Assembly: GCA_004431415.1 (NCBI GenBank)
Contig: QPMI01000121.1
Span: 62,001-126,000 of the forward strand
DNA: 64,000 nucleotides
Reading direction: 5' to 3'
Source of the DNA: Cyanophora paradoxa CCMP329
Taxonomy: Eukaryota; Plantae; Glaucophyta
Shown here: one piece after another, positions 30,142 through 50,400 of the stretch
How positions within the stretch are numbered: the stretch's first letter is position 1
How the letters are laid out: each line of letters opens with the position of its first letter
Made by a program: the position numbers and the translations under genes
The notes under the pieces: generated by a model
Databases searched by the model: none
What the model saw: the letters and a program-made list of their open reading frames with translations, nothing else
What the model was told of the DNA's origin: nothing

Positions 30142-30976
30142 GATTCAAACAAGCATCTCACTTTACCTTGTAGCTTGCTTCTCCTTATCCTGTAATCGCG
30201 AATGCATTGCAGCGGTTTATACGAATATCATTGAAACAATAGTATACGTATGCAGCTTTTTTGGTAAATTACCGGCCACAGCCTCCAGTGTCTCACAGCC
30301 TCTTTGCCCCTTGTCCCACAGCCTCTTTGCCCCCACTGGGCTACGATCTCGCGGTCTCCCAGACCCCGGGAGTCTAGATCTCCTGCCCCTTCGCGTTTTT
30401 TGCAGCGGCGCCGGCCCCTGTCCCGAGCTCGAGTACTAGCCCCGCACCGTACCGCGCCCGAAGCTGAGCCGCCTCCGCCCTGGCCACGTGCATTCCCCCT
30501 TCCTTCTTGCTTCCGTATATGCTGGCTACTGGGATATTAGCTATAGGTTGGAGGGTAAATCAGGGGAGAGGATAGGCAGGGGCGGAGGGAGGAAGCGAGG
30601 CGGGCATTATATATGGTATGGCGAAAAAGGCGGCTGCTGGGTGCAATTCCGAAAGTTCATGATCAACCCGCGGCCGGGGACGGGCACATGCAGCCTAGTA
30701 CCGCTCTCCGGCCCCGGGCCGAGGCTACCGTGTTACACAATATTGGTGCGCACGATATATAAGAGCGTTTATAGATAGACCCGGCCTCCGACCATAGTAA
30801 TGAGTGCGGTTTCAAATCACTGAGTCAGTGCGTTTTCATTCATATGCATGGCAAAAAACGCACTAATTTGGTACCGCGCTAATATTATGCGTGCACTATA
30901 ATTGTGTTACACGGTAGCGCTCTGAAGGCTGGACTCGGGAGTCGGGACTCGAGGGCCCGGCCCGGCGGGCCCGGCC
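21572..30976 (+). repeat. Copy A of a 9.4-kb tandem segmental duplication
   Basis: Near-identical to the sequence starting at 30996 (offset 9424). It ends at CCCGGCGGGCCCGGCC, which recurs at 53812-53827. Confidence 0.95.
30728..30914. mobile_element. Tc1/mariner-type MITE, 187 bp
   Basis: Imperfect TIR CCGTGTTACACAAT / ATTGTGTTACACGG flanked by TA on both sides. Confidence 0.65.
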
Positions 30977-33900: not shown

Positions 33901-35462
33901 TCAGCGATCCGGTCGGACTGTGTGGAATGCCGCGCGGGGAGCTACCAGCTGGAGGACCAGTGCCTGCCCTGCCCGCCGAACACGATCACGTCCGACCCCG
34001 GCAAGGACCAGTGCGAGACGTGCCCCGAGGGCTACGAGGCCGCGGCGGACAGACAGACCTGCACACGTGCGCTGCGTCTGCCTGTGCGAGCGATGGTGGC
34101 TGGCTGACGAGATGCGTGCGCAGCGTGCTTGGCGGGCACCTACAGGCACGCCCCGCTGGTGTCGTGCCAGCGCGTGCCTGTGGGGGCGGCGGCTGTAGCC
34201 GCGTCCAGGAACTACACCGTCTGCGCGAGAGGCACGGTCCCGAGTGATGACCTTGCGACATGCCTCCCGTGCCCGCGGGGCACGTACGAGAGGGACTGGC
34301 GGTGCCGCGACTGCGTTGGAAAGACATACGCCCCTCTTATCGGAATGACCGCGTGCCAAGATTGGTATGCTGGGCTTCTGTTCGCTTCCGTTTGCAATGC
34401 TGAATGCATGCACACAGCGAGCCTGGTTTTGTTGCGGACGAAACGCGCGAAGTTTGCTCGCCGTGTCCGAGTGGTTCTGCAAGGCCTGCGAGCGCCAGCT
34501 CCTGCCACGTGTGCCCCGCCGCGTATTTCGCCAACGCACCCGGCCGCGCCCAATGCGATTTTTGGTCCGCGCCCACGATCCGTTGTCGCGGCGCCCGCCT
34601 TTTGCGCCTGAGCCCGTCTTGCAGCCCCCAGGGACCGAGTCTGCCGACAATCGCGTGGCCTGCACGCCGTGTCCCTTGGGTTATGCGGAGGTGAACGGCA
34701 CGCGGACGTGCCGGTTCTGCGACGAGGGAACAGTCGCAGAGGACCAGGGCGCGGTCGAGTGCAGATCTTGTGCCCCTGGTGAAATCTCCAACGGCGATCG
34801 GTGCGCCAAAATCGATGAAGTGTCGAACTAAGTCTCTGCGTGAAGTCGACGTGCTCGCTCGCAGCACGCGCTGCACTCCCTGCCAAGCGGGGACGTTCAA
34901 GCCTCGGAACATGAACGTCTGTCTGCCGTGCCGGATCGGGACCTGGGCGCCAGCAGGCTCACAGGCGTGCCGTCCGTGCGAGCCTGGATCGTACGCATCC
35001 GAAGACTCCAGCGAGTGCATCGCGTGCACTCCAGGCACGTTCATGCCGGAGGGCTCCCAGGCCTGCCTCAGGGTGCGCGCTCGTTCGTATCAGTCTCTCG
35101 CCTTTTCGAACAGCGAACCTTTCGCGGTCCAGTGTCCCGAGAACTTCATCGCGCCTGATCCTGGGACGGCCTTCGCGTGCACCCCTTGCGATGCCGGGTA
35201 CACAGCGTCAGCCAACCGCCGCGTTTGCGAGCCCTGCGCTCTGGTGCTTATCCTCTTTGTTTATTCTGGATGCAATTTCCCTCGAGCTCTGTGGATTGAT
35301 TTTCCGCCACCTTTTGCAGGGCTTCTACAGGCCTCTGGACAGCAACAGCACGGGGTGCATTCCATGTGGGCCGGGAACTGTCTCGCGGTCCGCAGGCACC
35401 GGCGAGTGTGAGCAGTGGTGCGTCTTTGTGTAATTGTAATGCAGCCCATGCGCAGTCTACGC

Positions 35463-35736
35463 ACTTGACTTGTGTGCATTACACCCAAATTTTAGCGCAT
35501 TTTATTTACGACATTCAGTAACAACTTTACGATTCCCGATAACACAATATATTCACGATAAAACAATCGATGAAATACCCATTTAATCGAGAGATTCCCG
35601 ATGATACAACCAATATACATATAAAACAATCGATGAAATACCCATTTAATCGATTGAATCCATAAAAAACAACAAACCATAACTACACATAAACCATTCA
35701 CAGTTACACCCGTTACACCCATTTCACATTACACCC
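35463..35736 (+). repeat. Left terminal inverted repeat (274 bp)
   Basis: Begins ACTTGACTTGTGTGCATTACACCC and is the reverse complement of 47147-47420. Contains a 33-bp direct repeat (35558-35590, 35621-35653) and four TTACACCC copies. Confidence 0.95.
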
Positions 35737-36157
35737 ATGAGTTGTAAATTTTCATTTCACGAAAAAGATTAAGGCGCTGTTGACATACATAATATCTTCC
35801 TTTCTCTTTTGTGTAATTCATCAAATCTTTCCACGGGTTTCTCGACATCATAAATTTCTCTTTCCATGTTAAACACTTTCTCGGAACCAGAGTAACAGTT
35901 AAACCACTCGAACGATTTTTAAATTCCTCTTCTATCTTCTTTTGTTTTTGTTTGAATTCCTCGAATCGTTTTTCGTGGTCTATGTATTCTATGTATTCCC
36001 CCTCATCGTCTTCTGTGTCTCTCTCTACTTTTTGTTTCTCCTTATGTTTCTCACAATAGACAGTGTAGCTTTCCGATTCATAACTGAAAAAGTCATGAGA
36101 TCTACGAACATAGCAACATCCGCAATCCCGATATGTTTCGGTTGTTTCCCACCCCAT
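35729..36157 (-). CDS. Viral hypothetical protein (142 aa, Cys cluster plus charged region)
   Basis: ATG-initiated intact ORF, preceded by CAAAATTTGAC. The stop codon lies inside the TIR. Confidence 0.7.
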   Translation of the reverse strand: MGWETTETYRDCGCCYVRRSHDFFSYESESYTVYCEKHKEKQKVERDTEDDEGEYIEYIDHEKRFEEFKQKQKKIEEEFKNRSSGLTVTLVPRKCLTWKEKFMMSRNPWKDLMNYTKEKGRYYVCQQRLNLFREMKIYNSWV

Positions 36158-36192
36158 CGTTATTACAACTTCTCGGATTCCTTTTAAACTCT

Positions 36193-36224
36193 GTCAAATT
36201 TTGCCCCCGATGCGAAAAATGACG
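36193..36224. promoter_or_regulatory. Back-to-back putative early-promoter motifs
   Basis: GGCAAAATTTGAC on the minus strand (36193-36205) and GCGAAAAATGACG on the plus strand (36212-36224), between divergent ORFs. Confidence 0.6.
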
Positions 36225-36251
36225 ATTTCTTAAAATAACCATTGCAACAAA

Positions 36252-36644
36252 ATGGAAGCGGATAAGTGCAGATACTGTGGTATAACGTATTCTCGCCTAA
36301 AACATTGGAGACTCAGAAGTATATGTAGCGATTGCCTTAAAAGAGATGATATAGACTTACCTTTTACTGTAAAACGACGCTGTAAGATATGTAACTTTGC
36401 AATACTTGGGAATTGTGAATGTAACATACTTAATGGCGTCCTAATCTGTGGAAAATGCAATAAAAATATTGAATTCTTAGAACTCCTAACACCGTATGAT
36501 TTCTATAATTACTCACTCGAAGTGGAAGAGTATAAAAAGTATATTCCGTGGATTCCACAAAATGCAACTTTGCAAGAATATATTAAGTCTATCGATGTCG
36601 GGACAAAAAATGACGCGCCACCACAACAAAACCACAACCTGTAA
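36252..36644 (+). CDS. Viral Cys-rich putative zinc-binding protein (130 aa)
   Basis: CRYC, CSDC, CKIC, CEC and CGKC motifs. Confidence 0.7.
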   Translation: MEADKCRYCGITYSRLKHWRLRSICSDCLKRDDIDLPFTVKRRCKICNFAILGNCECNILNGVLICGKCNKNIEFLELLTPYDFYNYSLEVEEYKKYIPWIPQNATLQEYIKSIDVGTKNDAPPQQNHNL

Positions 36645-36646
36645 CC

Positions 36647-36934
36647 ATGGCGATTACAAAAGAGTATTTCGCGAATCATTTGGGATTTTACGTTAATCCT
36701 GATTTATCGGAAGAAGAGCGCATAAAAGCAATAACCGATAAGGTGTTTACCGATACAACCGGGTGTAATCTTTCGAAGGTTTCAAGTTCAGCAAGAAAAG
36801 CAATTAGAAAAGCAAACGAAACCTACATACAACCATCGTATAATGAAACTATCAATTTAGCGGAAGCCCGACATGATCGGAATTTAATCAAATTGAAATT
36901 AAAAAAGAAACTCGAAGCTCGAAAGAACCAATAA
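36647..36934 (+). CDS. Viral hypothetical protein (95 aa, basic C-terminus)
   Basis: Intact ORF with CAAAAAATGACG about 35 nt upstream. Ends KLKKKLEARKNQ. Confidence 0.7.
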   Translation: MAITKEYFANHLGFYVNPDLSEEERIKAITDKVFTDTTGCNLSKVSSSARKAIRKANETYIQPSYNETINLAEARHDRNLIKLKLKKKLEARKNQ

Positions 36935-36996
36935 ACGTAACATTAAGCACAGGCAAAAAATGATGTCCTTTTTAGAAGTTTTTGTAACCTTACAAG

Positions 36997-37302
36997 ATGA
37001 ATGGGAAATATACCAAAGGTATTGGCTGTGGTGTTGCGAAATCGCATAAGTTTATGGAAACTTTCCTATGTAATGAGGAAAATAGAAAATTGGAGAAATT
37101 CGATGAATTCTTTACGGGATATATTCAGCATATCGGAGGAACTAACGGTAAGAAGTTAAACCCTTCTGTTAAAGAACACATGCGCGGTGAATTTATTCAG
37201 ATCATCACATGTTGGGAAGATGGACAATATGGATATACGGAACCTGTCCGTGGTAGATTGCAAAAGAAATTAGCAGAGCGCAAAAAGAAACTTACACTGT
37301 AA
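36997..37302 (+). CDS. Viral hypothetical protein (101 aa, basic C-terminus)
   Basis: Intact ORF with CAAAAAATGATG about 35 nt upstream. Ends RLQKKLAERKKKLTL. Confidence 0.7.
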   Translation: MNGKYTKGIGCGVAKSHKFMETFLCNEENRKLEKFDEFFTGYIQHIGGTNGKKLNPSVKEHMRGEFIQIITCWEDGQYGYTEPVRGRLQKKLAERKKKLTL

Positions 37303-38044
37303 TCGTCGTGGGTTCATTACTAATTCTTATCGATTCTCTCTTTTTTATCGCTCGTTTCTTAACAAACTTGCGAAACGCTTTCATGTCATCATCTGTTATT
37401 ATTGCACGGTCTGTGTATACTTTGATATCATAACCTTGTAACCCAGTTATTACGGTCTGATAATTGTAACCCCAAAGTCTATGTAGTTCTTTATAAGTCT
37501 TCTTGTCCAATCCACCGTTATATTCATCGAATGCGCAGTTAAACTCTTTCTCATTTCCGAGGATGTTAAAGAATACCACGAATTCCACGTTACGACGAAT
37601 AGTAGTAGAAATAGAGCATATACGTTGGACATTGAAAATAACAGTTATACCATAATGTCTTCCGCTCGTTACCAGTTTAGATAACACAGCCGAATTATGC
37701 ATATCCAAATTAGAACCTATCATATCGTCTAAGATAATAACCAAACTATTACGCTTTTCATTGTTTTCGATTCGTTTCTTTTGCATACTAATTAGTTTTA
37801 TCACCACATTATCATCCCATTCCTCATAGATATTATCAGGATGCGTTATATCTCTGAATTGACCCGTAAACGCAGTGGAACTAAACACTACGATTTGATC
37901 AATCTTATCACGCAGTTCATAAAGTAGATATTTACAATATGTTGTCTTACCAGAATTGGAGCGCCCAGCTAAGAGAAAACGCGAGCTTAATTTTACAGTT
38001 TTTGCCGGCTCAAATTCGGGAATATCATTTAAATCTATATCCAT
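37292..38044 (-). CDS. A32-like (FtsK/HerA superfamily) genome-packaging ATPase
   Basis: Walker A GRSNSGKT, Walker B LVIILDD, GRHYGIT arginine motif, downstream Q...IRRN. Confidence 0.92.
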   Translation of the reverse strand: MDIDLNDIPEFEPAKTVKLSSRFLLAGRSNSGKTTYCKYLLYELRDKIDQIVVFSSTAFTGQFRDITHPDNIYEEWDDNVVIKLISMQKKRIENNEKRNSLVIILDDMIGSNLDMHNSAVLSKLVTSGRHYGITVIFNVQRICSISTTIRRNVEFVVFFNILGNEKEFNCAFDEYNGGLDKKTYKELHRLWGYNYQTVITGLQGYDIKVYTDRAIITDDDMKAFRKFVKKRAIKKRESIRISNEPTTITV

Positions 38045-38141
38045 TACTGTGTGTCCGTTACAGTAATAAGATAAAAAACAAAATAACGCGCTAACCTATA
38101 CGCAACTCGCAGGATTCCTACTTTAAAGAAAGAAAAGAACT

Positions 38142-39368
38142 TTAAAAGTTGGAAACTTTCAGTGTCGAAATGTTATAGCCATTGAGAACCATGACATTAT
38201 GACGGAGCGCGTAAATGTCTACTTGGACAGGCGCAGCATCAGTGCAACCGGAAACAGTGAGATCCATGTAAGAACTCGAACTATTAAAGAAATCCTGATA
38301 ACCCATGACTGAATTATGGAGCGAATCCTTACCAGATTTTGAAAGAACCACACCATAGATACATGCGTTTTCAAAACCAAACACAGTATTACCGACGGTC
38401 GCGCCTTTGTAATGCGATGGGATATGGTTAGCAGCAGAAAGGAAACCAGAAATGGGTTTATTAGAGATTTCAAGCGATCGGTTATTGTGGAAAATTTGGA
38501 ACTCATCGATTTTAACAGCAGATCCCACACCGTAGAAATCAGAGTGAGTGTGTTTATCCAGTTTGTTAACATCCCGAACAGTCATTAGGATAGAATGCAC
38601 CAGACCGGAAACGTTAGCAAGTGTAACCTCTACCGCCTCACCAGAATCGGCAGTTTTCAGTGATCGCGTCTTTTTATGAATGACTTCCGTAATCGGGATA
38701 CGAATGCCTCCCTGTTCATTCGCCATTTTAAGAAGACTTTCAGCCTCCGCAGATGCAATGTTAACGAATTGACAGATTAGCCCGCAATCACTCACGGTAA
38801 CAGTTCCACCAGCAGGAACGTTAACTACCGCAGCCTCGCGAAAATCGACCTCGATGGTGGGCATATCCGCAAGAACGCAAAGTGGGAAATACGCATCATC
38901 CCAGAAAGCCGCCGGAATCTTAATTACGTATTCAATCGACTTGTTGGTAATTTCACGGGTGGTTTCCTCACCTACACCCAGTGACATAAACATAGTGCTT
39001 AGCGTCGCATTATCATTATCAATCAGAGTGTTTACAGTGATCCAATCACCAGGGATGATATACTTAAACCCACCATGGACAAAGCGAACTTCTTTAATGT
39101 AAGAAGGGCCACCATTGGGAAGATCACAAGCAACACCACCACCAGTAGTAACCTTAAAGTAAAGCGAAACGCCACTTAGTAGTTGCTTGCGTGGTAGATC
39201 AAAATAAGCGGTTGTTTTGAAACCGAAAGTGTTACCACGTGGGCGAACCTGTTCAAGGAACGGCTTATATTTGGGGTTGGTTCCGATTTGGAGACCGGGT
39301 GATAGATAAATTTGATCCGATCCGGGAGTAACGAGGAGTTCTTTAAGGGTCGTTCCAGTAAGCGCCAT
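38142..39368 (-). CDS. Double jelly-roll major capsid protein (408 aa)
   Basis: FG...YFDLPRKQLLSGVSL, IKEVRFVHGG, IP..FW...FPL, IYGVVLS...GYQDF and C-terminal VDIYALRHNVMVLNG. Sits between the ATPase and the penton. Confidence 0.85.
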   Translation of the reverse strand: MALTGTTLKELLVTPGSDQIYLSPGLQIGTNPKYKPFLEQVRPRGNTFGFKTTAYFDLPRKQLLSGVSLYFKVTTGGGVACDLPNGGPSYIKEVRFVHGGFKYIIPGDWITVNTLIDNDNATLSTMFMSLGVGEETTREITNKSIEYVIKIPAAFWDDAYFPLCVLADMPTIEVDFREAAVVNVPAGGTVTVSDCGLICQFVNIASAEAESLLKMANEQGGIRIPITEVIHKKTRSLKTADSGEAVEVTLANVSGLVHSILMTVRDVNKLDKHTHSDFYGVGSAVKIDEFQIFHNNRSLEISNKPISGFLSAANHIPSHYKGATVGNTVFGFENACIYGVVLSKSGKDSLHNSVMGYQDFFNSSSSYMDLTVSGCTDAAPVQVDIYALRHNVMVLNGYNISTLKVSNF

Positions 39369-39420
39369 GTCTTATGTTTAAAATACGAAAAGAAATTTTT
39401 AAATTACATTATTAAACAGA

Positions 39421-40353
39421 ATGATGAGGTCTCCGACCGACATTAGCGGACGCTCGCGTTACTATCTAAATATTGATTCCCGGGATCGGGATGATGGAAC
39501 CCCCACAAACTATTCTTATAAACTTCCCCATGCAATCCAAAATGTTAAAGCGTGTCGTGTTACCAATTTCGAAATGTTCAATAACATTTACAATCTCAGC
39601 GAAAATGGAGCGCTCGTAACCTCTACACTCGATGGACAAGGGGCAACCAAAACTAAAACGAATTCAATTTCGAAAGGGACTTACACACCGGATAGTTTGG
39701 TGAATTATCTAAATGCTATTTTGCTGTCACAAGTCTACGGCGCATCCGGGACTACTTACACCCGTCATTTCAGTGTGTCTTATGATCCTATTACGATGAA
39801 ACTTAGGATACTCGGCGAAGTTGAATTTACTATACGATTTGGTAACATGATTTTAGCCAATTTCTTAGGTTTCCCGGAACCTTCCATAAGTGGTTCAGGT
39901 TTAGGTTATCCATCTACCGCTCTCGATTCACCACAGCAAGTAGGTGCTTATACTTATAATCATTACCTCGATAGTGTTAATCCACTCGACCTTCTGTTTA
40001 ATTCTTACATCCTTCTACATGTTGATCCACTCAAAGGCAATTATGTAAGCAAGAATACCAGCGACGATAAAGCGCTTGCTAAAATTGAGATTGACCAGAC
40101 GGTAGGTAGTCTTCTAAAATACGATTCTACAAATAACTCTATGATCATCCATGAGCAAAACGGATTAGTGGAAGTTGAGACGCTAAAAGTGCGTTTGACG
40201 TATTGGAATGGTAACGAAACGGACATTACCACGGATTGGTCGATGACCTTAGAACTGATCACCGAAGATGAAAAGGATCTTACAAAAGCAGCATTGAAAA
40301 ACGTTATAAGAGATTTGGAAAATGTCTATTTACCATTCGGTCGTAATATGTAA
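39421..40353 (+). CDS. Minor capsid (penton, single jelly-roll) protein
   Basis: N-terminal LNIDSRDR...PTNYSYKLP..IQNV...N.IYN and C-terminal LKVRLTYWNG...DWSMTLEL. Confidence 0.8.
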   Translation: MMRSPTDISGRSRYYLNIDSRDRDDGTPTNYSYKLPHAIQNVKACRVTNFEMFNNIYNLSENGALVTSTLDGQGATKTKTNSISKGTYTPDSLVNYLNAILLSQVYGASGTTYTRHFSVSYDPITMKLRILGEVEFTIRFGNMILANFLGFPEPSISGSGLGYPSTALDSPQQVGAYTYNHYLDSVNPLDLLFNSYILLHVDPLKGNYVSKNTSDDKALAKIEIDQTVGSLLKYDSTNNSMIIHEQNGLVEVETLKVRLTYWNGNETDITTDWSMTLELITEDEKDLTKAALKNVIRDLENVYLPFGRNM

Positions 40354-40385
40354 TTTTGCATTATATTTTTGTCTTGTTATTTCAA

Positions 40386-41150
40386 ATGGCTCGCAAGACA
40401 CAACCAAAGAACTACTTAGCCAAACCAGCGGCAATAGCTGATGTTGGAGATGGTGATATGAAAGGGAGGAATTGGTATAAGAAATCAAAGGGTGTCGGGG
40501 CGCTCGGTAATGGTGATATTGAGCGTGATGTTCACAAAGATAGGAACCAGTTTACGACAGCATCCACAAATGATATTAACGATGGTAACGCCCTCATTGA
40601 GCAAGTGCCGCTAAACCGTATGCCCGGTGCTAAACGTGGGATTAAGAAAGGACAGTTTAAGAGTTCCACCGTTGATGCGGTTAACAAAAAGTCGACTCTT
40701 CTTAAACTTCTCGATGGCGGCGAGCGTCTATATTCCACCTTTTCGGAAAAAGACCACCGTAACCGTTACTTTATCAGAGCAGCCACCGGTGGACTAAAAA
40801 CGATTACTTATAAACACGCTAAAAGTCTCGTTGAGGGAATCGCCGATGAGACGCAGAAAGAAAAGAAGATAACGGAGCAACCGATAACCAAAGAGAAGGT
40901 AGACAAGAAACCAGATGTTACGTTTGATGTCCTTCCCGATCCAATCAAAGAGGAGAAACACACACCGACGGAATTGATCGCTAAAACGATCGAGTATCAA
41001 GAATCCAATAAAACAGATTTACCGGTGTTAAATAAGTCTATCTTACGGGTTGCTACATCGCAATCTGACCCGCTTAACTCGATTCCCAAAGCGGCGGCGA
41101 TGATTTCCGGATTTGCTAAATTGGGTCTCCGTCCAGGATACAAACGTTAA
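40386..41150 (+). CDS. Viral basic hypothetical protein (possible core/virion protein)
   Basis: Lys-rich ORF directly after the penton. ATG 40386 is preferred over the TTG start given in the track. Confidence 0.65.
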   Translation: MARKTQPKNYLAKPAAIADVGDGDMKGRNWYKKSKGVGALGNGDIERDVHKDRNQFTTASTNDINDGNALIEQVPLNRMPGAKRGIKKGQFKSSTVDAVNKKSTLLKLLDGGERLYSTFSEKDHRNRYFIRAATGGLKTITYKHAKSLVEGIADETQKEKKITEQPITKEKVDKKPDVTFDVLPDPIKEEKHTPTELIAKTIEYQESNKTDLPVLNKSILRVATSQSDPLNSIPKAAAMISGFAKLGLRPGYKR

Positions 41151-41511
41151 GCGACGGCAACGCAAGCGTGTGCCTTTTGCTCACGCATCATTCTCACGTT
41201 AAAATTTTCTTTTCAAAGAATAGCGTTAAACATCCATCTCCGAATTTTAACGCTCACGTTTACTTATTTTTATAAGTGGCGTTGTAGAGAAGTTGTGAAA
41301 ATCCATGATTTTTAAACTTTTTAATCACCTGTTCTACGGGGTTCATTCGTAGAATCGAGGAAGCGAAGACTTTCGGCTTATTTTTCCGGCATCTTCTTTA
41401 TAACGGTGCGCAAAAAATGACGGCGTTTTTAAAAACTGATCGACGTGTTATATACACGATAAGAAAAGGACTTAAAGATTTCTTGCTATATATCAGAAGA
41501 GGAACAAGAGA

Positions 41512-41766
41512 ATGCCGCTAAGCGAATCTCAGAAACGCGCGATTTATCGCTACCGCAGCACAGAAAAGGGTATGTTAGCGCTTGCGCGATTCAATGAAAA
41601 ACGCAATGTAAAATGGAGTGAGTTGTATAATAACGATGACGCATTTAGACAGAAACACATAGCGACCTCGTGTAAGGCACAGTATGTAAATAACACGATT
41701 CTATATATTAAATATCTCTTTGACGTCCCGCGAACGAATCGTGGGCGTCCATCAATTCACTGTTAA
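41512..41766 (+). CDS. Small basic putative DNA-binding protein (84 aa)
   Basis: Starts MPLSESQKRAIYRYR and has a C-terminal RGRP (AT-hook-like). Upstream CAAAAAATGACG and ACTTAAAGA motifs. Confidence 0.65.
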   Translation: MPLSESQKRAIYRYRSTEKGMLALARFNEKRNVKWSELYNNDDAFRQKHIATSCKAQYVNNTILYIKYLFDVPRTNRGRPSIHC

Positions 41767-42000
41767 TTCTTTTTCCTTGGCGCGATCGCTGAGGAAGACA
41801 AGGCGCAACCGCGCTTAAACATTGTTAAAGTGTTTGAGTTATTTTTAAGACCATCAAATGGTGGTCGACCCTTTTGTTATTTTTATTAAACCCTCAAAAG
41901 CGGATTTTGTGGATTTTGCGGTGGCGCCAAAAAATGACGCAATGTATAAAAAGCACTTAAAGAAATAAAATATAGTGTATATAATAAGAACGCCTATAAG

Positions 42001-45000
42001 ATGTTTTCATTTGCAACAGTGAAGAATATCATCGGATCTGTGGTAGAGTCCGTTAGCAATCTACCCGGTATTCGCAGCATCCCGTTTATCGGTAATGCAA
42101 TTAAGCGAATCGCTAATGACCGTTTCGAAAGAGTCGTAAAGGAACTCGAAGCAAGGAAGAGTGAGAAGAAGGAGAAGACTAAGGAGGAAATCCGCGCAGA
42201 GCGGAAGAAGCGCAAGCAGGAGAAGAAGGAGAAGCGCGCACTGAGAACGATTAAGAACATTCAGAAGCAAGAAGGGAAGAAGTTCAAGGGAAAGGTAAGG
42301 CGTCTCATTCGTCGTATTGAAGCAGAAAATGGCGAAACTGTTTCGGTTCACGTAAGGTTCTATGCACTTCCCGATGATATCGATAATCTACCCCAAAACC
42401 GCGATGTAGTCTTACACAAAGACACGCCTTATGTTGAGACACAGAAGAGCGGAAAAAGGGCGTTAATTATGACTTGCCCGAAAGACGTATTAATTGCAAG
42501 ACTCGCCGAAGTGGAAGACGAATTTAATAACTTCCTTGCCGTTTGGGAAATCGATAATATCGCCACTTTCCTACTAAACATCGCGGATCGTAACGCAAAT
42601 AACAGGGATTACAATTATGTGAAAATTTTCGCTAACCCACAAGTGAATGGCTCCGATATTCCGTATCCCGATGTTATGTCTATCGAAGAAATCGTAGTAA
42701 GTGACAATACCACGGTATACCCTCTGAATGAAAGAGCGCTTAGAGACGGAGAGGCGCCTAAGATCGTTTCGCGTTTCATCAAATATACCCTTAATGGTGG
42801 CGCAAAATCTGTATTGGATCAGATTAAACCCGATGAGTCGCTTATCATCAAGGATTGCTTAATAGAGGCGTTACATCAGGTCATCGTGAAATCTTTCGAA
42901 TATGCCCACAGTATCAGCAAATACAAGAAGGTCAATTATTCGAAGGAATGGCTTTATGAGCAGATCAAAGGACACGCGCCTAATGAAACATCCGATTGGG
43001 GGACGTCCTTTAACGAAATACTACCATTCTTGCAAAAGTGGCGCATCCGCTTTATCGCAATCGGAAAAGACGATAAGGTTATCCATTCTCTGTGCTACAA
43101 ACCTACCCGGACAAATTCACATCTTGTCCCAGCAAGCGTTTACGTTCAGATCTCTAACGATCACGTGTATGTGTTGAATAAAGACCTTAGTAAACTCGTG
43201 CGATCTTTCAATGGAACAGCGGCGCGTGAAACCAAAGCGGTGGGTTCATCCTCGCTAAAATACAAGATCAAAACACAGTTTAACGATATCAGCCATCCAG
43301 CATACTCTGAGGAAGAAATAGTGGAGATTGTTAAACGCGAGAAGGAGAACAACGCCACAAAAGTTACGATCACTTACAGTAAGCCGTTATTCGAATTGTT
43401 GGGAAGTTTCAGAAAAGCGAACCACGAAGTTAACGCGACTATTTCCGATGAAGGTATAGTTAGCTACATCCATTACAAGATCGAAGACATCGATGTATGT
43501 ATATTACCACCCGGCAACATGGTAAATATGGATGATGTTGACGTTAACCTTAGGGATGAAGAACACCGGAAACTCTTTAACGAAATGTCGCAGATGATGA
43601 ATCGCGCGCTCATTAACAGGAATGTTAAGAGCAAATACAACCCTGAGACATTCACGGCATTCACGAAAGGACAACAGAGCGCATTAAATGGGTTTTTCGC
43701 GACTTCTACCGCTGAATTGCAGCAATTATTCGAAGGTGTTATGTATGGCGCATTCGATACGCATAAATTGGATATCTCCAAAGCATACACACATATCGTA
43801 TCGAAACTCATTAAAAACTTCCCGGTGTTTAGTTCATTCGATCGATTCGAAAAGGTCGTGGTAACATGTAGCGATGATATCGAAGTGGACGCCTTCTATT
43901 CGGTGAAAGTAAGAGCAAAACACTTTACGGTAAATCGCAAAGACCAATTAATTAACAACATGTCGCAATACAAACGTATCCTTGTAGACTCAAAATTTAA
44001 CCTTCTGTATGGTGCAGTGTTAAAAGAGTTCTACGATGACATCCGCGACGATGTGATTATCGAAGCAGTGGTAAGACCATACCGGGTTGTTAAAAACGTC
44101 ACGTTGCAGGCTTTCAAGCAGTTGTTTGCGTCTAATCTTTCGATCAAGGAAAAGAAGGATATCAGTAATCATACTATCGGGAAGTTTGGTAAGAAATCCC
44201 AGCGAAAAATCCAAACGACGATATTCTTTAACAAGAACGACGCGCTTAACTTTGTTCAAGAGAACGGCGGTAAATTGAGATCGCTTAATTTCGATTCAAA
44301 GAAGCCAAAGCGGACGACTGTAAGGAATGAGGCAAAGACAGAGACACCGATGTTATGGTATGTAAACCAGGAAGGAGAAGAGAAGATGCTTATAGATGGT
44401 TTCCTACCTATCCAGTGTCAGATTTACAGTATCATGCGTGGGATCATGTATAAACTTGCTAAGGATCTAAGAGCTGATGGTGTCGGAGTTCTACGCATCA
44501 GAACCGATGAGTTTCTTATAGACAAGCCATACCCATTTGAGCCGTTTGACCGTGACCTTTTCGAGAACACCGGAAAGTATGACGTGAAACCGTTTAATCT
44601 TGCTCCGATCGCGTCACAGCAGTCAAAGAAGAAGAAGCGGAATAATGCTAATGGGTGGATCACATTCGACAGACTGAAACAGCGTGACGAGAGGTTTATT
44701 ACGGTCGAGAAGGTAAACCATAAGGTGTTCAAGTTCAAGGATGAATACAACGTGGAAGCCATTGTGAATGCTATGGAAGGAAAGGGTAACGTGATTATTC
44801 GAGGTGTTAAGCCCGGAACAGGTAAGACCACATTAGCGAAGGCGATGACACGGAAGTATGGTAAAAACTGTCTTTTCATTGCGCCTACTAACATTCGATG
44901 CAAGCAACTACGCATGGAATTGAAAAAGGAGTGGTGCGAAGTTGATATGGTCGATGTAAAGACCATCTACAAGTCATTACATCTGAATATCGACCCCGAG

Positions 45001-46101
45001 AAGATGAATGACAACGTAGGAAAACAGGTTACCGATTTATCCCGGTATCAGTGCTTTGTTATCGATGAGGTTTACCAGTTCCCCATTCGCGAATTGGAGG
45101 CGCTGAGAGACATTATGACTATCCATTTTCCGGATAAGTTGTATATCGTTACAGGTGATCCATTCCAGATCCCACCGATTCAATTTATCGACATTGACCA
45201 TCGCGACTACTACAATAAGATCTTTGACCGGTTGTTTAAGAATGAGGTTTATTTACAAGTCGGAAAGCGACACAAAGACCCCGAAGATCAGGTTAAAATA
45301 GATCAATTAAAACATGATCTATTCGTGGCTAAAATGCGTGTTCCGGAGGCAGCGGCGCGGTTAGGTCTTGCATTTGTGAATGAAATGGAAAAAGGCGACA
45401 TTTCCATAGTTCAATCTAACCGCAAGTCCGCGGAAGTGAATAATGCGATGCATAGGATGCTTTACGGTGTTGACATGGTTTATGAGGAAGGCGTGCATTT
45501 GATTGCAAAGTATCAAATCACAACAAATGAGGGTATCATTTATCGCGGATTTGAATATGAAGTAATCAAATACGAAGCTGAAAAAGTCCTTACGCTAAAA
45601 GACGTTGACACCGAAGAAATCTATAATGCGAAGCCCGAAGACATCAAATATTTCGCATTATCGCATGGTTTCACTTGTTACAGCATTCAAGGCGACACTA
45701 TCAGAGATAAACGGGTGGTTGTGTATCAGACTACCTCGCCATACATGACCGCTGAGAGTTTCTATGTTGCAGTTACGCGAACCGAAAGACTTTCTGACAC
45801 TGTGATTTTCGTAGATGAGGACGAAAGACGGAGAGTTGGTATGGAGAAGGTTGAGTTTGCCGTTAAAATCAGATCACACAAGGCGGAAGACAAGAAGTGT
45901 AACCGCGAGTTTGACGTGGCGGATTACATCGATTGGGAATGGAAGGGTTACCGCTTTGGTAAGCAGCATGGACGCTGTGGAAGGTGTGGCGATATTATGG
46001 ATTCGGAAGATGCGACAGTAGACCGTTATAACAACGCAATCGCCCACATTAAGCCGAACTGTTTCTTGTCTCATAATAGGTGTAATTGCGCAGCGCAGTA
46101 A
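42001..46101 (+). CDS. Replication polyprotein: divergent family-B polymerase fused to an SF1 (RecD/Pif1-like) helicase and a C-terminal HNH-like domain (1366 aa)
   Basis: PolB-like motifs LDISKAY, KKDISNHTIGKFG and RIRTDEF. Helicase motifs GVKPGTGKT, VIDEVYQ, GDPFQIPPI, TCYSIQGDT and YVAVTR. C-terminal CGRC..TVDRYNNAIAHIKPNC..SHNRCN. Confidence 0.85.
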   Translation: MFSFATVKNIIGSVVESVSNLPGIRSIPFIGNAIKRIANDRFERVVKELEARKSEKKEKTKEEIRAERKKRKQEKKEKRALRTIKNIQKQEGKKFKGKVRRLIRRIEAENGETVSVHVRFYALPDDIDNLPQNRDVVLHKDTPYVETQKSGKRALIMTCPKDVLIARLAEVEDEFNNFLAVWEIDNIATFLLNIADRNANNRDYNYVKIFANPQVNGSDIPYPDVMSIEEIVVSDNTTVYPLNERALRDGEAPKIVSRFIKYTLNGGAKSVLDQIKPDESLIIKDCLIEALHQVIVKSFEYAHSISKYKKVNYSKEWLYEQIKGHAPNETSDWGTSFNEILPFLQKWRIRFIAIGKDDKVIHSLCYKPTRTNSHLVPASVYVQISNDHVYVLNKDLSKLVRSFNGTAARETKAVGSSSLKYKIKTQFNDISHPAYSEEEIVEIVKREKENNATKVTITYSKPLFELLGSFRKANHEVNATISDEGIVSYIHYKIEDIDVCILPPGNMVNMDDVDVNLRDEEHRKLFNEMSQMMNRALINRNVKSKYNPETFTAFTKGQQSALNGFFATSTAELQQLFEGVMYGAFDTHKLDISKAYTHIVSKLIKNFPVFSSFDRFEKVVVTCSDDIEVDAFYSVKVRAKHFTVNRKDQLINNMSQYKRILVDSKFNLLYGAVLKEFYDDIRDDVIIEAVVRPYRVVKNVTLQAFKQLFASNLSIKEKKDISNHTIGKFGKKSQRKIQTTIFFNKNDALNFVQENGGKLRSLNFDSKKPKRTTVRNEAKTETPMLWYVNQEGEEKMLIDGFLPIQCQIYSIMRGIMYKLAKDLRADGVGVLRIRTDEFLIDKPYPFEPFDRDLFENTGKYDVKPFNLAPIASQQSKKKKRNNANGWITFDRLKQRDERFITVEKVNHKVFKFKDEYNVEAIVNAMEGKGNVIIRGVKPGTGKTTLAKAMTRKYGKNCLFIAPTNIRCKQLRMELKKEWCEVDMVDVKTIYKSLHLNIDPEKMNDNVGKQVTDLSRYQCFVIDEVYQFPIRELEALRDIMTIHFPDKLYIVTGDPFQIPPIQFIDIDHRDYYNKIFDRLFKNEVYLQVGKRHKDPEDQVKIDQLKHDLFVAKMRVPEAAARLGLAFVNEMEKGDISIVQSNRKSAEVNNAMHRMLYGVDMVYEEGVHLIAKYQITTNEGIIYRGFEYEVIKYEAEKVLTLKDVDTEEIYNAKPEDIKYFALSHGFTCYSIQGDTIRDKRVVVYQTTSPYMTAESFYVAVTRTERLSDTVIFVDEDERRRVGMEKVEFAVKIRSHKAEDKKCNREFDVADYIDWEWKGYRFGKQHGRCGRCGDIMDSEDATVDRYNNAIAHIKPNCFLSHNRCNCAAQ

Positions 46102-47159
46102 TGGATAACGTGTTATCTTACAAGAAATACCGGCAGAAGTTGATAAACGATAAAGTGACATTTGATGAAGCAGAATTAAAGAAACGTTTTATAAATTCGG
46201 AAGTGCATCAGATATTTAAGAAACCAAAGAAACCGAAGACATTTCTAAGAGTTGTTGCTATGCCTTATTCGTTTCAGGTGGACATAATGAATTTTAAAGG
46301 ATATCAAACCGCGAATAATGGGATTTACAAGATGATAAGTTTTATTGATATATTAAGTCGGAAGGCTTTCGTGTATCCGTTTAAGAAAAATGAAGAAATC
46401 CGCGAAATTTTGAATAAGTTTAAGGTTGAGGCAGGTAAGGTTAATGGATTGGCGGGGGATCATGAATTTAGCAGCGCAATTTATAAAGATTGGTGTGATG
46501 CTAACGGCGTAAGATTATACACAGATGTTGCGAAAGATGACCATGTAACAGTTGGTAATAAGTTGGGAATTATTGACAGATTCACACGGACTTTTAAGCA
46601 ATATTTGAGGAAGGCGATGACGGCAAAGGGAACCACGAAGTGGATAGATTTAATAGATGAAGTTCTTTCGATTTACAATAGTTCACCTCATAGTTCCTTA
46701 AAAGACGATTCACCCAATGCGGTATTTGCAAGTGATCAGAAACAGCTTTTTATACATCTACGTGATATTGTGCATAATAAGCATATTCAAGAGAAGGAAA
46801 AGAGGGATACAGTAAAACCGGGCGATACTGTGCGAGTGTTAGAAGGTAAAAAAAGTGCATTTGAAAAGGAAGGCGCGCGATTCAGTCAGAAGGTTTATAA
46901 AGTCGGAAGATCTGACGGGAATAGGTTTAAGATGTTGGAGGACATGGACGGAGACGAGAAGGAAGTAAAGAGACGCTTTAAGAAGCAAGAGTTACAGAAG
47001 GTGAATGTGAAAGACGTAATTAAGATACCGTCGCAAAAACGAATAGAACGAGTAAAAAAGGTAAATGCTGTGAATCAGAAGATGAAGAAGGAAGGAATTA
47101 AACCGAATCGAAAAGTAACCGTGAGGAAGAAGTATAATTTAAGGAAGGGTGTAATGTGA
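46101..47159 (+). CDS. Retroviral-type (rve) integrase, Polinton-like
   Basis: FQVDIM, FIDILSRKAF, AGDHEF, IIDRFTRTFK, YNSSPHSSL...P and KPGDTVRV. The ATG overlaps the upstream stop (TAATG). Confidence 0.9.
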   Translation: MDNVLSYKKYRQKLINDKVTFDEAELKKRFINSEVHQIFKKPKKPKTFLRVVAMPYSFQVDIMNFKGYQTANNGIYKMISFIDILSRKAFVYPFKKNEEIREILNKFKVEAGKVNGLAGDHEFSSAIYKDWCDANGVRLYTDVAKDDHVTVGNKLGIIDRFTRTFKQYLRKAMTAKGTTKWIDLIDEVLSIYNSSPHSSLKDDSPNAVFASDQKQLFIHLRDIVHNKHIQEKEKRDTVKPGDTVRVLEGKKSAFEKEGARFSQKVYKVGRSDGNRFKMLEDMDGDEKEVKRRFKKQELQKVNVKDVIKIPSQKRIERVKKVNAVNQKMKKEGIKPNRKVTVRKKYNLRKGVM

Positions 47160-47420
47160 AATGGGTGTAACGGGTGTAACTGTGAATGGTTTATGTGTAG
47201 TTATGGTTTGTTGTTTTTTATGGATTCAATCGATTAAATGGGTATTTCATCGATTGTTTTATATGTATATTGGTTGTATCATCGGGAATCTCTCGATTAA
47301 ATGGGTATTTCATCGATTGTTTTATCGTGAATATATTGTGTTATCGGGAATCGTAAAGTTGTTACTGAATGTCGTAAATAAAATGCGCTAAAATTTGGGT
47401 GTAATGCACACAAGTCAAGT
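47147..47420 (-). repeat. Right terminal inverted repeat (274 bp)
   Basis: Ends GTAATGCACACAAGTCAAGT and is the reverse complement of 35463-35736. Confidence 0.95.
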
Positions 47421-50400
47421 CACGCCCTGTACACTATGTACCCCTGCTGACGCTGGGAGACAGTCCGCCAGGAAAGGTGCCGCGTGAAGACCGCGCAGAC
47501 TGCAGGGGTACGGAACCTTGGCTCGCGCCAGCAGCCTCATCATCGCGTCACGCGCTTATTGCAATAAATGTCTTTTCTGCTGCAGACTGCGCCGCTGGAA
47601 CGTACCCCAGCGGCGGCATCTGCCTGCCGTGTCCGCCTCTAACTACCTCACGTTCCGGGGGTTCGCGGCCCCCTCAGGCATTCAATCAATTTTTGATCGA
47701 CCACGCAGACCCGACTTGCACCCGCTGCCCTGCTGGTGCCGCGACTGCGTTGGAAAGACATACGCCCCTCTTATCGGAATGACCGCGTGCCAAGATTGGT
47801 ATGCTGGGCTTCTGTTCGCTTCCGTTTGCAATGCTGAATGCATGCACACAGCGAGCCTGGTTTTGTTGCGGACGAAACGCGCGAAGTTTGCTCGCCGTGT
47901 CCGAGTGGTTCTGCAAGGCCTGCGAGCGCCAGCTCCTGCCACGTGTGCCCCGCCGCGTATTTCGCCAACGCACCCGGCCGCGCCCAATGCGATTTTTGGT
48001 CCGCGCCCACGATCCGTTGTCGCGGCGCCCGCCTTTTGCGCCTGAGCCCGTCTTGCAGCCCCCAGGGACCGAGTCTGCCGACAATCGCGTGGCCTGCACG
48101 CCGTGTCCCTTGGGTTATGCGGAGGTGAACGGCACGCGGACGTGCCGGTTCTGCGACGAGGGAACAGTCGCAGAGGACCAGGGCGCGGTCGAGTGCAGAT
48201 CTTGTGCCCCTGGTGAAATCTCCAACGGCGATCGGTGCGCCAAAATCGATGAAGTGTCGAACTAAGTCTCTGCGTGAAGTCGACGTGCTCGCTCGCAGCA
48301 CGCGCTGCACTCCCTGCCAAGCGGGACGTTCAAGCCTCGGAACATGAACGTCTGTCTGCCGTGCCGGATCGGGACCTGGGCGCCAGCAGGCTCACAGGCG
48401 TGCCGTCCGTGCGAGCCTGGATCGTACGCATCCGAAGACTCCAGCGAGTGCATCGCGTGCACTCCAGGCACGTTCATGCCGGAGGGCTCCCAGGCCTGCC
48501 TCAGGGTGCGCGCTCGTTCGTATCAGTCTCTCGCCTTTTCGAACAGCGAACCTTTCGCGGTCCAGTGTCCCGAGAACTTCATCGCGCCTGATCCTGGGAC
48601 GGCCTTCGCGTGCACCCCTTGCGATGCCGGGTACACAGCGTCAGCCAACCGCCGCGTTTGCGAGCCCTGCGCTCTGGTGCTTATCCTCTTTGTTTATTCT
48701 GGATGCAATTTCCCTCGAGCTCTGTGGATTGATTTTCCGCCACCTTTTGCAGGGCTTCTACAGGCCTCTGGACAGCAACAGCACGGGGTGCATTCCATGT
48801 GGGCCGGGAACTGTCTCGCGGTCCGCAGGCACCGGCGAGTGTGAGCAGTGGTGCGTCTTTGTGTAATTGTAATGCAGCCCATGCGCAGTCTACGCCCTGT
48901 ACACTATGTACCCCTGCTGACGCTGGGAGACAGTCCGCCAGGAAAGGTGCCGCGTGAAGACCGCGCAGACTGCAGGGGTACGGAACCTTGGCTCGCGCCA
49001 GCAGCCTCATCATCGCGTCACGCGCTTATTGCAATAAATGTCTTTTCTGCTGCAGACTGCGCCGCTGGAACGTACCCCAGCGGCGGCATCTGCCTGCCGT
49101 GTCCGCCTCTAACTACCTCACGTTCCGGGGTTCGCGGCCCCCTCAGGCATTCAATCAATTTTTGATCGACCACGCAGACCCGACTTGCACCCGCTGCCCT
49201 GCTGGATCGATCTCCGACGATGCCCGCAAAGCGTGCATACCGTGCCCGTCGTCGATGTACCTGCCGCCGAGCAGCGAAGTCTGCCTTCCGTGCCCCATGA
49301 ATTCGATTTCGCAAGCCGGGTCCACGGGCTGCACTTGGTGGTACGTTGCATACTTGCTGTGTCACAGTGTTTCTCTCCGTTCGGGACTCGCTAACGAGCC
49401 GCCGCGTCAATTTGTTGCAGCTTGGAAGGCTATGTGGTGGGTTGCTTGCCATCGGGTTTTGCTTGCCTGATATCAATAACGAGCGCCTCGAATCTCGCAG
49501 TCTGACGAGTCCCAAACGTTCTGCGAGGTAAGCTGTTGCTGGCCTGATTCCGAGAGGGGACGCAATGGCGACCGCCGGGCGCAGGTCTGTTCGAAGGGCA
49601 CCTTCAGAAATGCGACGATGTCCTACTGCGAGCCTTGGTCCGTCCGAGCATGCCCGGCCCTTTGTTTCATTGCGACGTGCAAGTTTTCGCGTTGATTGTG
49701 CGTGTTTCTCGCGCAGCCCGTCCGGCACCTTCGCGGCGGCCGCAGGATCCGCGGCCTGCACGCTGTGCTCGTCGACGCAGCTGTGCCCGATCGCGACCTC
49801 GGAGCCGATCGACATATCCGACTTCAAGAAACTCATATCGGAGACCATTTCCGAGGCCCTCGCCGCCGCGAAGGAGGGGCTGCAGCCCGCTACAGGCAGA
49901 GTGCGGCGCGGCCTGTTACTCGCTCGGAGGCTGCTGGGCGCCGGGGATTTCCTCAAGCGTATCTCGAGCGACGAGACTGCGATGTCCTTTGTCAGCGAGA
50001 ACGTGACGTGCGCGTGCATTGTTCTGAGCGGGTCCGACTGCTGCCGACCCCCTCTCGTGTCTGCTTCGCAGGTACGATACGAACACTGCAACGATCGTCC
50101 GGCCTGTGCGTGGAGTATTGTAATCTTCACTTCCGAAAAACCCTGAGCTCGAGCGTTCGTTTCTCCAGGAAATCCGCACGGAAGAGGTCGCAAAGCAGCG
50201 CCTCTACCTGGTACGAAGTTGAACTAGCTAGATAGATAGCGCGGATATTCCGCTCTGGATCTCAATCGGAGCGACCGACCGCGCGCCCCGCGCAGGTCTT
50301 CGCGCTGCTGGTCTCGTGCGTCGGGGTCCTCCTGCTCCTCGCCGGCGTCTGCCTCTACTCCTACCTAAAGGTACGCTCTGTTATGTTATGTTATGGTATG

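Follow-up and report, generated by a model that had tools for sequence, protein, structure and literature searches.

Fusions of a pPolB with an SF1 helicase (pPolB-S1H) are known from Polinton-like viruses, Tlr1 and transpovirons, where the domains follow the order vOTU, palm, S1H, HNH; the vOTU Cys/His and polymerase motifs A and B are kept, the first Asp of motif C is replaced, and there are neither exonuclease motifs nor a KxY (PMC5499653, PMC11161782). Since the first Asp of the motif C DTD is lost, the polymerase was called 'inactivated', and the KxY (motif 4) and exonuclease motifs were reported to be absent (Krupovic et al., 2016; PMC5499653). This claim has been withdrawn, and the whole family is now predicted to be active (Krupovic et al., 2024; PMC11161782). 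In the text of both papers the exonuclease domain of pPolB-S1H is absent, a remnant being described only for mavirus, and the 2024 proposal has the polymerase trimmed twice, in the mavirus-type and in the helicase-fused enzymes (PMC11161782). Many members carry an HNH or a GIY-YIG domain at their C-terminus. The endogenous Polinton-like virus OmPLV of Oxyrrhis marina also fuses an SF1 helicase with a pPolB, but there the helicase comes first, the exonuclease is full and the fusion is considered independent (PMC12721341).

The gene described here shares the domain order and the residue pattern of the known pPolB-S1H, with an HNH-like domain at its end, and is of the same kind as the proteins of pMVRE groups 2-3 (Wei et al., 2026; PMC13215967). 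We found no difference in kind from the known family as described in print. A fusion of the OmPLV type was ruled out by the opposite domain order. Its architecture has been published before, as has the predicted activity (PMC11161782), and this copy is an ordinary member of the family.

An endogenous Polinton-like virus carries the fusion gene

The gene lies within an integrated element in the window, the 64-kb stretch of DNA analysed here. Its features are:

35458..35462, + strand: left target-site duplication TACGC, 5 bp, imperfect, from empty-site comparison
35463..47420, no strand: complete endogenous Polinton-like virus, 11,958 bp
35463..35736, + strand: left terminal inverted repeat, 274 nt, opening with ACTTG twice (5-nt direct repeat)
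37292..38044, - strand: A32-like packaging ATPase, 250 aa (Pfam Pox_A32, E 1.2e-14)
38142..39368, - strand: capsid-like protein, putative MCP (ESM Atlas top matches 0.98)
39421..40353, + strand: possible minor capsid (penton) protein, 310 aa
42001..46101, + strand: pPolB-S1H fusion gene ('Tlr1-like helicase'), 1366 aa, ORF open
46101..47159, + strand: rve-type integrase, 352 aa (Pfam rve_3 E 0.0096 and rve E 0.17, both below cut-off)
47147..47420, - strand: right terminal inverted repeat, fully complementary (100%) to its left counterpart
47421..47425: right target-site duplication CACGC, matching the left copy at 4/5 bases

The element has a GC content of 40% against 61% in its flanks, and the window contains two copies of the empty host site, at 26011 and at 48866. 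Its assignment to the Polinton-like viruses draws on the 274-nt inverted repeats, the 5-bp target-site duplication with one mismatch and an integrase whose rve matches lie below cut-off; of the pair of double jelly-roll MCP and packaging ATPase, the ATPase is firm and the MCP comes from language-model features only. Capsid_N or Capsid_NCLDV annotations occur in 12-83% of the members of the Atlas clusters matched by the capsid-like protein, at a recognition of 1832, below the 2300 mark of the tool, and this protein had no match in Pfam, in PDB or in the homologue search (0 among 4787 candidates, word-indexed). The possible penton identity of the 39421..40353 product comes solely from what we take to be an N-terminal penton-like motif; Pfam and PHROG gave no match. 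The integrase ATG and the fusion-gene stop codon overlap as TAATG.

At 12 kb the element is shorter than the 14-40 kb cited for Polinton-like viruses (PMC12220804). A Polinton (Maverick) in the strict sense was ruled out, there being no full pPolB with exonuclease motifs and DTD. A gene set of the same kind is described for Tlr1 of Tetrahymena thermophila, comprising MCP, mCP, packaging ATPase, rve integrase and pPolB-S1H, with no maturation protease recognised (PMC5499653), but the C-terminal nuclease here is HNH-like and not GIY-YIG. In our element no Ulp1-like maturation protease was recognised among the ORFs by Pfam or PHROGs, several small ORFs being without family assignment. No second polymerase gene is recognisable within the element either, in agreement with what had been stated from the sequence alone. 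An assembly artefact was ruled out, as 59-65% of the words of the element occur in 20 runs from 18 studies; contigs from four runs span all 30 bins of the fusion gene.

Protease, helicase and nuclease domains of the fusion protein

An AlphaFold model of the fusion protein (pLDDT 80.8, pTM 0.83) was used for the structural comparisons, a fold from the single sequence being unusable (pLDDT 31.9). The order is N-terminal domains, vOTU, exonuclease-like remnant, palm/fingers, SF1 helicase and His-Me finger:

42337..42750, + strand: alpha/beta domain, aa about 113-250, poorly conserved, with a Lys/Glu-rich stretch before it
42757..43188, + strand: vOTU cysteine protease domain, aa 253-396, with C286 (42856) and H388 (43162)
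43282..43611, + strand: predicted remnant of a shrunken exonuclease fold, aa about 428-537, conserved catalytic acids lacking
43630..44598, + strand: pPolB polymerisation domain, aa about 544-866, with D591, Y596, K719, N723, G727, R834-T835-D836 and G858
44743..45786, + strand: SF1 helicase, aa about 915-1262 (Pfam AAA_19, E 3.9e-6)
45865..46098, + strand: His-Me finger (HNH-like) Zn module, CxxC...DR...H...N...HxxCN

Conservation was counted in 125 aligned homologues of at least 1000 aa that are 23-32% identical in the matched stretch, and since they were picked by similarity to the fusion protein, shared motifs are favoured in these counts. The family is large, with 729 clusters at 50% identity (E at most 0.001). 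A word-indexed search found no homologue of residues 480-900 among 3480 candidates and two matches to residues 560-1366 among 7997. No relative was confirmed in viral contigs scanned with the element proteins or the family alignment, and tblastn against phages gave no match. The best viral fold match was H6WBE3 (999 aa, E 2.5e-17), presumably a transpoviron protein.

The blocks of the alpha/beta domain have a model pLDDT of 44-81 and gave no fold match among the matches listed; from its position we infer a putative terminal-protein (priming) domain. The vOTU protease, which is absent from the sequence-only reading, has its catalytic C286 in 124/125 and H388 in 125/125 homologues, and many OTU structures match model residues 149-292 (Z 5.2-6.9).

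The SF1 helicase motifs and the HNH-like Zn module reported in that reading are both confirmed. The helicase is closest to Pif1/Dda/RecD (family profile against PDB structures, E 5e-20 to 1e-12) and contains Walker A GTGKT at 44815, DEVYQ at 45064, GDPFQ at 45154, then SIQGDT and YVAVTR; K942, E1023, Q1056, R1090 and R1260 are each present in all 125 homologues. The Zn module reads CGRC...HNRCNC at 45976-46089, with Arg in the usual position of the catalytic His. Its residues are found in 105-117 of the 125 homologues (C1326 115, C1329 112, R1342 114, H1349 111, N1353 117, C1361 114, N1362 105). At the His-Me finger the family profile matches PacI weakly (E 0.11), and 84% of the members of an ESM Atlas neighbour cluster carry PF01844 HNH; the fusion protein had no direct match to an HNH Pfam domain, and the finger alone as query found no nuclease in PDB.

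The polymerase domain maps onto phi29 DNA polymerase

The positions given earlier for motifs A, B and C hold within the open reading frame: motif A, LDISKAY, begins at 43768 (D591: 43771), motif B, K718...G730, at 44152 and motif C, IRTDEF, at 44497 (RTD: 44500-44508; D836: 44506). The motifs are no chance matches: D591, K719, G727 and D836 are each found in 125/125 homologues, Y596 in 123, N723 in 116 and T835 in 115. Among the other 31 Asp of residues 400-899, D614 (121/125) is the only one to exceed 38/125. Ten key protease, polymerase and helicase residues occur all together in 124/125.

Phi29 polymerase is the best PDB fold match of the model (Foldseek E 3e-7; VIA Z 14.9, rmsd 4.2, 354 aligned); phi29 structures reach Z 14.6-14.9, and the next families, including RNA-primed PolBs, Z at most 8. 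In the model, D591 ends a strand that precedes the helix of motif A, and D836 sits in the turn of a beta-hairpin. A co-linear profile alignment pairs D591-D249, Y596-Y254, K719-K383, N723-N387, G727-G391, R834-D456 and D836-D458, though with weak scores (local E 0.009, global E 6e-5, probability no higher than 37%); an earlier profile of the family alignment against the phi29 sequence alone was insignificant and wrongly aligned (probability 0.3%). Asp249 and Asp458 are named as the phi29 catalytic carboxylates in PMC4974454. Superposition on phi29 and conservation of the two Asp among homologues had been proposed as checks, and the outcome of both agrees with the reading. PDB sequence and profile searches found the helicase only, never a polymerase, and no Pfam PolB domain was found in the fusion protein or in 30 homologues. 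Homologues, fold match and profile alignment together support the assignment to pPolB fused to SF1 helicase.

The statement that both catalytic aspartates are kept is right for the motif A Asp and the second Asp of motif C, and not for the first Asp of DTD, which is Arg834 here and Asp in 0/125 homologues. Other phi29 features are not kept either. The equivalent of Y390, the motif B Tyr, is Ile (Tyr in 1/125), E486 and the catalytic exonuclease acids are missing, and KxY has no conserved column, K-x-Y occurring anywhere in the stretch in 23 of 126 rows. A median of 92 aa between D836 and the Walker A Lys leaves little thumb space, and the thumb is probably missing. Compared with phi29, protease, helicase and nuclease domains are fused here and the exonuclease appears shrunken; mavirus has a separate SF3 helicase instead of the fused SF1 helicase and His-Me finger.

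Is the polymerase active?

The probable reading is that this gene supplies an integrated Polinton-like virus with its pPolB-S1H replication protein, whose trimmed family B polymerase is active, as predicted family-wide. The suggestion that the enzyme may be active holds as a prediction from the invariant Asp, the phi29 fold match, the profile mapping and the variant pattern given below, and piPolB is an active enzyme that lacks both the first motif C Asp and KxY (PMC5695915). What does not hold is the implied active exception in an inactivated family: the premise was the 2016 view, reversed since (PMC11161782), and all 125 homologues keep the same Asp pattern, so that this copy is ordinary. 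Our literature search found no published biochemical assay of a pPolB-S1H protein. The present gene, which is intact and naturally variable among many isolates, belongs to hundreds of candidates suited to such an assay; activity would mean that a family B polymerase can replicate a genome although it lacks the first Asp of motif C, the Tyr of motif B, KxY and proofreading, and probably the thumb as well.

A possible course of replication can be drawn from phi29, adenovirus and PMC11161782. Once the element has left the chromosome, synthesis at both of its ends would be primed by the N-terminal domain; a jump-back start would fit the ACTTG-ACTTG repeat found there. The vOTU would sever the priming domain from the rest of the protein. 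Elongation by the palm would rely on two metals bound to D591 and D836 and lack proofreading, while the fused helicase would unwind ahead and may stand in for the missing thumb as a DNA grip. The nuclease-like tail might, as a guess, nick or resolve the ends.

The palm might instead serve initiation only, adding the first nucleotide(s) to the terminal-protein domain, with a host or giant-virus polymerase elongating behind the fused helicase. Primer grip, translocation and fidelity are the tasks of what has been lost here, namely the room for a thumb, KxY, the counterpart of Y390 and the proofreading acids, whereas the metal- and dNTP-binding residues are invariant, and giant viruses co-occur with elements of this group (PMC13215967). 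We nevertheless regard this as unlikely: the model aligns with phi29 continuously over chain range 5-497 (an output that gives the range without residue pairs), unbroken through the region in which phi29 has TPR1, fingers and TPR2, the last being the processivity element (PMC11161782), and piPolB is described in PMC5695915 as elongating without a canonical KxY.

Impairment of the present lineage in an otherwise active family is highly improbable. It could be suspected from 34 positions at which a residue shared by 70% or more of the homologues is replaced, including 475, 477, 619 and 863, the last being Lys here and Glu in 88/125 homologues, in the column aligned to phi29 E486. Yet 27/125 homologues likewise have neither Glu nor Asp at 863, the inverted repeats are identical, and the frame is intact, with one 3-nt indel and no frameshift among the variants listed for 41900-46200 in four same-species runs. 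In these runs, 44140-44640 has 28 variant sites, none at the 15 family-conserved positions or at 863, and variation is skewed to synonymous (11 synonymous and 12 non-synonymous variant codons against about 101 and 394 sites). Just as improbable is a dead polymerase domain that acts as a scaffold through which the helicase binds DNA. This view of 2016 was founded on the absent KxY and exonuclease motifs (PMC5499653), and a first motif C Asp missing in 125/125 speaks for it too; yet two metal-binding Asp and the dNTP-binding Lys invariant in 125 distant homologues are hard to explain without catalysis, and its own authors dropped it in 2024 (PMC11161782).

A predicted remnant of the exonuclease fold

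It had been noted that no proofreading motif is apparent. This is correct for the catalytic residues, but the model retains an exonuclease-like fold of about 110 residues without catalytic acids. VIA-align paired model residue 324 (aa 428) with phi29 residue 5, and at least 52 of 352 pairs fall within phi29 5-189. Columns 395-590 contain no single invariant acid, only 439 (D 47 and E 49 of 125) and 520 (67/125) reaching half. Against the phi29 exonuclease profile, residues 425-545 scored 17.2, above 60/60 block-shuffled controls (maximum 16.0), yet residues 280-399 of the OTU region reached 20.8; the profile test is therefore equivocal and the case for the remnant is a structural one.

The remnant bears on whether the polymerases of mavirus and Polinton-like viruses were trimmed once or twice. 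We tentatively propose, at somewhat less than even chances, that the pPolB-S1H exonuclease was not deleted but shrank to a conserved spacer, as in mavirus, and that trimming took place once, in a common ancestor of the mavirus-type and helicase-fused enzymes. Such a replicase would have neither thumb nor proofreading and would be held by its own helicase, and the basic first residue of motif C would make the primer contact that is lost with the KxY lysine. In RB69 polymerase the KxY Lys presumably forms a pair with the first Asp of motif C; position 834 is basic (Lys, Arg or His) in 97/125 homologues.

Conserved residues of the fusion protein

The reading frame of the pPolB-S1H fusion (a protein-primed family B polymerase joined to an SF1 helicase) is uninterrupted over 1366 codons (42001-46101). 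The sequence-only reading had proposed that its polymerase keeps both catalytic aspartates, and we recovered the motifs where they had been placed: D591 lies at 43771, motif B starts at 44152 and RTD occupies 44500-44508. The SF1 helicase motifs (44815 onwards) and the Cys/His module (45976-46089) were likewise recovered; the protease had been overlooked. An exhaustive phmmer search with residues 251-1366 gave 729 clusters at E <=0.001. The 150 of these that were listed, plus two from another search, formed a pool of 152 homologues, of which 125 of at least 1000 aa were aligned and 27 shorter ones excluded; selected by similarity to the fusion protein, the set represents its subfamily, not every pPolB-S1H.

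D591, K719, G727 and D836 are each invariant (125/125), and Y596 (123/125), N723 (116/125) and T835 (115/125) nearly so. Only D591, D836 and D614 (121/125), out of 33 Asp in residues 400-899, are kept in more than 38 of the 125. At position 834, where a canonical DTD has its first Asp, no homologue carries Asp; the residue is Lys in 74, Asn in 24, Arg in 13, His in 10 and another in 4. The residues of the vOTU cysteine protease are retained as well (C286 124/125, H388 125/125).

Structural mapping onto phi29 polymerase

Residues 105-920 were folded from alignment A3 (58 homologues picked by hand out of 127 to limit the size of the alignment), giving a predicted model with pLDDT 80.8 and pTM 0.83. 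All nine Foldseek matches in the PDB at E <0.001 were phi29 polymerase, with which VIA-align paired 354 residues (Z 14.9, rmsd 4.2). In an unbiased search of 48,161 chains phi29 was the sole match at Z >=8 (14.6), followed by other PolBs and by OTU proteases over residues 253-396; the best matches among viral models were a protein of 999 aa, a pPolB catalogued under the name of a densovirus, and the mavirus pPolB.

Residues were mapped by aligning the family profile with one of 54 phi29-like and tectivirus polymerases (phi29 numbers are record numbering plus 3). Scores were weak (local E 0.009; global E 6e-5 over 560-900), but the residues pair co-linearly: D591-D249, Y596-Y254, K719-K383, N723-N387, I726-Y390, G727-G391, R834-D456, D836-D458 and K863-E486. 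Since D249 and D458 are the catalytic carboxylates of phi29 (PMC4974454, in part), the two aspartates singled out from the sequence are the right ones.

The structural alignment begins at residue 428, against phi29 residue 5. Because its 352 pairs span phi29 5-489 and the phi29 polymerisation domain starts at residue 190, at least 52 pairs lie inside the exonuclease domain. For KOD/Tgo, E. coli Pol II and Pol alpha, too, the aligned stretch opens close to residues 425-438, paired with chain positions 134, 145 and 541; these we take to be the starts of their exonuclease domains. No conserved catalytic acids were found in this region of the homologue alignment. The earlier statement that no proofreading motif is apparent thus holds for the catalytic acids, but the model would contain an exonuclease-fold remnant, a lead only, since the profile test is equivocal and the region was modelled within residues 105-920. 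Krupovic et al. (2024; PMC11161782, in part) describe the fusions as without exonuclease domain, note a remnant for mavirus only and propose independent losses; the words "exonuclease" and "remnant" are absent from the supplement text, and the figures may show a remnant.

Relation to the known family

In 2016 these domains were described as inactivated, given the substitutions in motif 3 (C) together with a lost motif 4 and a lost exonuclease (PMC5499653, in part). According to Krupovic et al. (2024), the altered residue is the first Asp of motif C, missing also in mavirus, pipolin and other polymerases; activity is now predicted for the whole pPolB-S1H family, with domain order TP-vOTU-palm-S1H and HNH or GIY-YIG last. 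A piPolB with the second Asp only was shown to be active (PMC5695915, in part), and many such fusions occur in eukaryotic genomes (Wei et al., 2026; PMC13215967, in part). The OmPLV fusion has the opposite domain order (PMC12721341, in part). In our literature searches we found no biochemical test of a pPolB-S1H. With the first motif C Asp lost in all 125 aligned homologues and activity predicted in print, the Cyanophora protein represents the normal state of its family, an ordinary member and no exception. The observation of the sequence-only reading is confirmed; its suggestion that the polymerase may be active is supported, but not new.

The element and its genomic setting

Features of the endogenous Polinton-like virus (PLV)

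35463-47420, island of 11,958 bp, 40% GC (flanks 61%)
35463-35736 and 47147-47420, perfect terminal inverted repeats, 274 nt each
42001-46101, plus strand, pPolB-S1H fusion
46101-47159, rve-like integrase, Pfam match below cut-off
Within the island, A32-like packaging ATPase (E 1e-14)
35729-37302, 40386-41150 and 41512-41766, six small ORFs, among them:
35729-36157, minus strand, acidic protein of 142 aa bearing a CxC...C cluster
36252-36644, Cys-rich 130-aa protein
Position within these ranges, basic 254-aa protein

Language-model features point to a probable major capsid protein gene. A possible penton gene, which we assign from a penton-like motif, is without any Pfam or PHROG match; the six small ORFs gave no convincing one, and neither a protease gene nor a second polymerase gene was recognised in the island with these databases. 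The gene set equals that described for Tlr1-type Polinton-like viruses (PMC5499653, in part). PLVs are quoted at 14-40 kb (PMC12220804); the element falls below this, yet capsid, ATPase, replicase and integrase genes seem retained.

The surrounding host sequence is duplicated within the window: 21564-35460 and 47421-52843 hold near-identical segments, spaced about 2.3, 9.4 and 22.9 kb, which encode Cys-rich TNFR/ephrin-receptor-like/NCD3G repeats. The element occupies one copy, and comparison with the two empty ones (sites at 26011, 48866) reveals a target-site duplication of 5 bp in which one base is mismatched. Each inverted repeat carries two ~56-nt units 63 nt apart (35558-35676, 47207-47325), possibly binding sites for replicase or integrase. 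Between 59 and 65% of the element's words are present in 20 runs from 18 studies under a single species label, and the best run could itself be the origin of the window.

The integrase ATG overlaps the stop codon of the fusion gene. The first two acids of the integrase are D61 (QVDIM) and D120 (AGDHEF); the third position is Asp (IIDRFTRT), where rve integrases usually have Glu. Higher depth and loose contig ends at the gene start (46060-46200) suggest that related integrase genes adjoin other upstream sequences in the same species.

Proposed function and alternatives

The fusion protein is quite likely the replicase of the element. It would be primed by protein at the inverted repeats, cleave itself through its vOTU domain, synthesise DNA by a two-metal mechanism via D591/D836 while the fused Pif1/RecD-like helicase unwinds, and do so without proofreading. 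All these steps we infer; residues, folds and gene context are what was observed. At its ends the element opens with a direct repeat of 5 nt, and this would be compatible with a jump-back start as described for adenovirus.

Counting against an active replicase, the phi29 Y390 equivalent is Tyr in 1/125 homologues, the KxY column is absent from their alignment, Lys863 stands where 88/125 have Glu (phi29 E486, presumably part of the LExE motif), and D836 lies a median of 92 residues from Walker A, leaving little thumb space. These losses give some weight to a palm limited to initiation, which we consider unlikely, and slight weight to a dead scaffold, which is highly improbable. Natural variants, skewed to synonymous and sparing conserved positions, argue against decay of the lineage. 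In four runs, 44140-44640 has 28 variant sites in 23 codons (11 synonymous, 12 non-synonymous, against about 101 and 394 sites; rough ratio about 0.3), none at the 15 conserved positions. Over the whole gene, a single 3-nt indel occurs among the 40 variant sites listed of 273.

Contigs of all four runs hold a second, strongly diverged version of 42622-42714 (about 20 differences/90 nt), in the domain at the terminal-protein position, which may reflect either several kinds of copy within each isolate or recombination.

The C-terminal His-Me finger has Arg at the usual catalytic His position and a conserved His in a loop, resembling the PacI group, in which a Tyr of the loop takes over this role (PMC5714182, in part); the profile match to PacI has E 0.11. 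Its retention in about 90% of homologues, a count biased by a query that included the domain, points more to a permanent component of the protein than to a transient intein.
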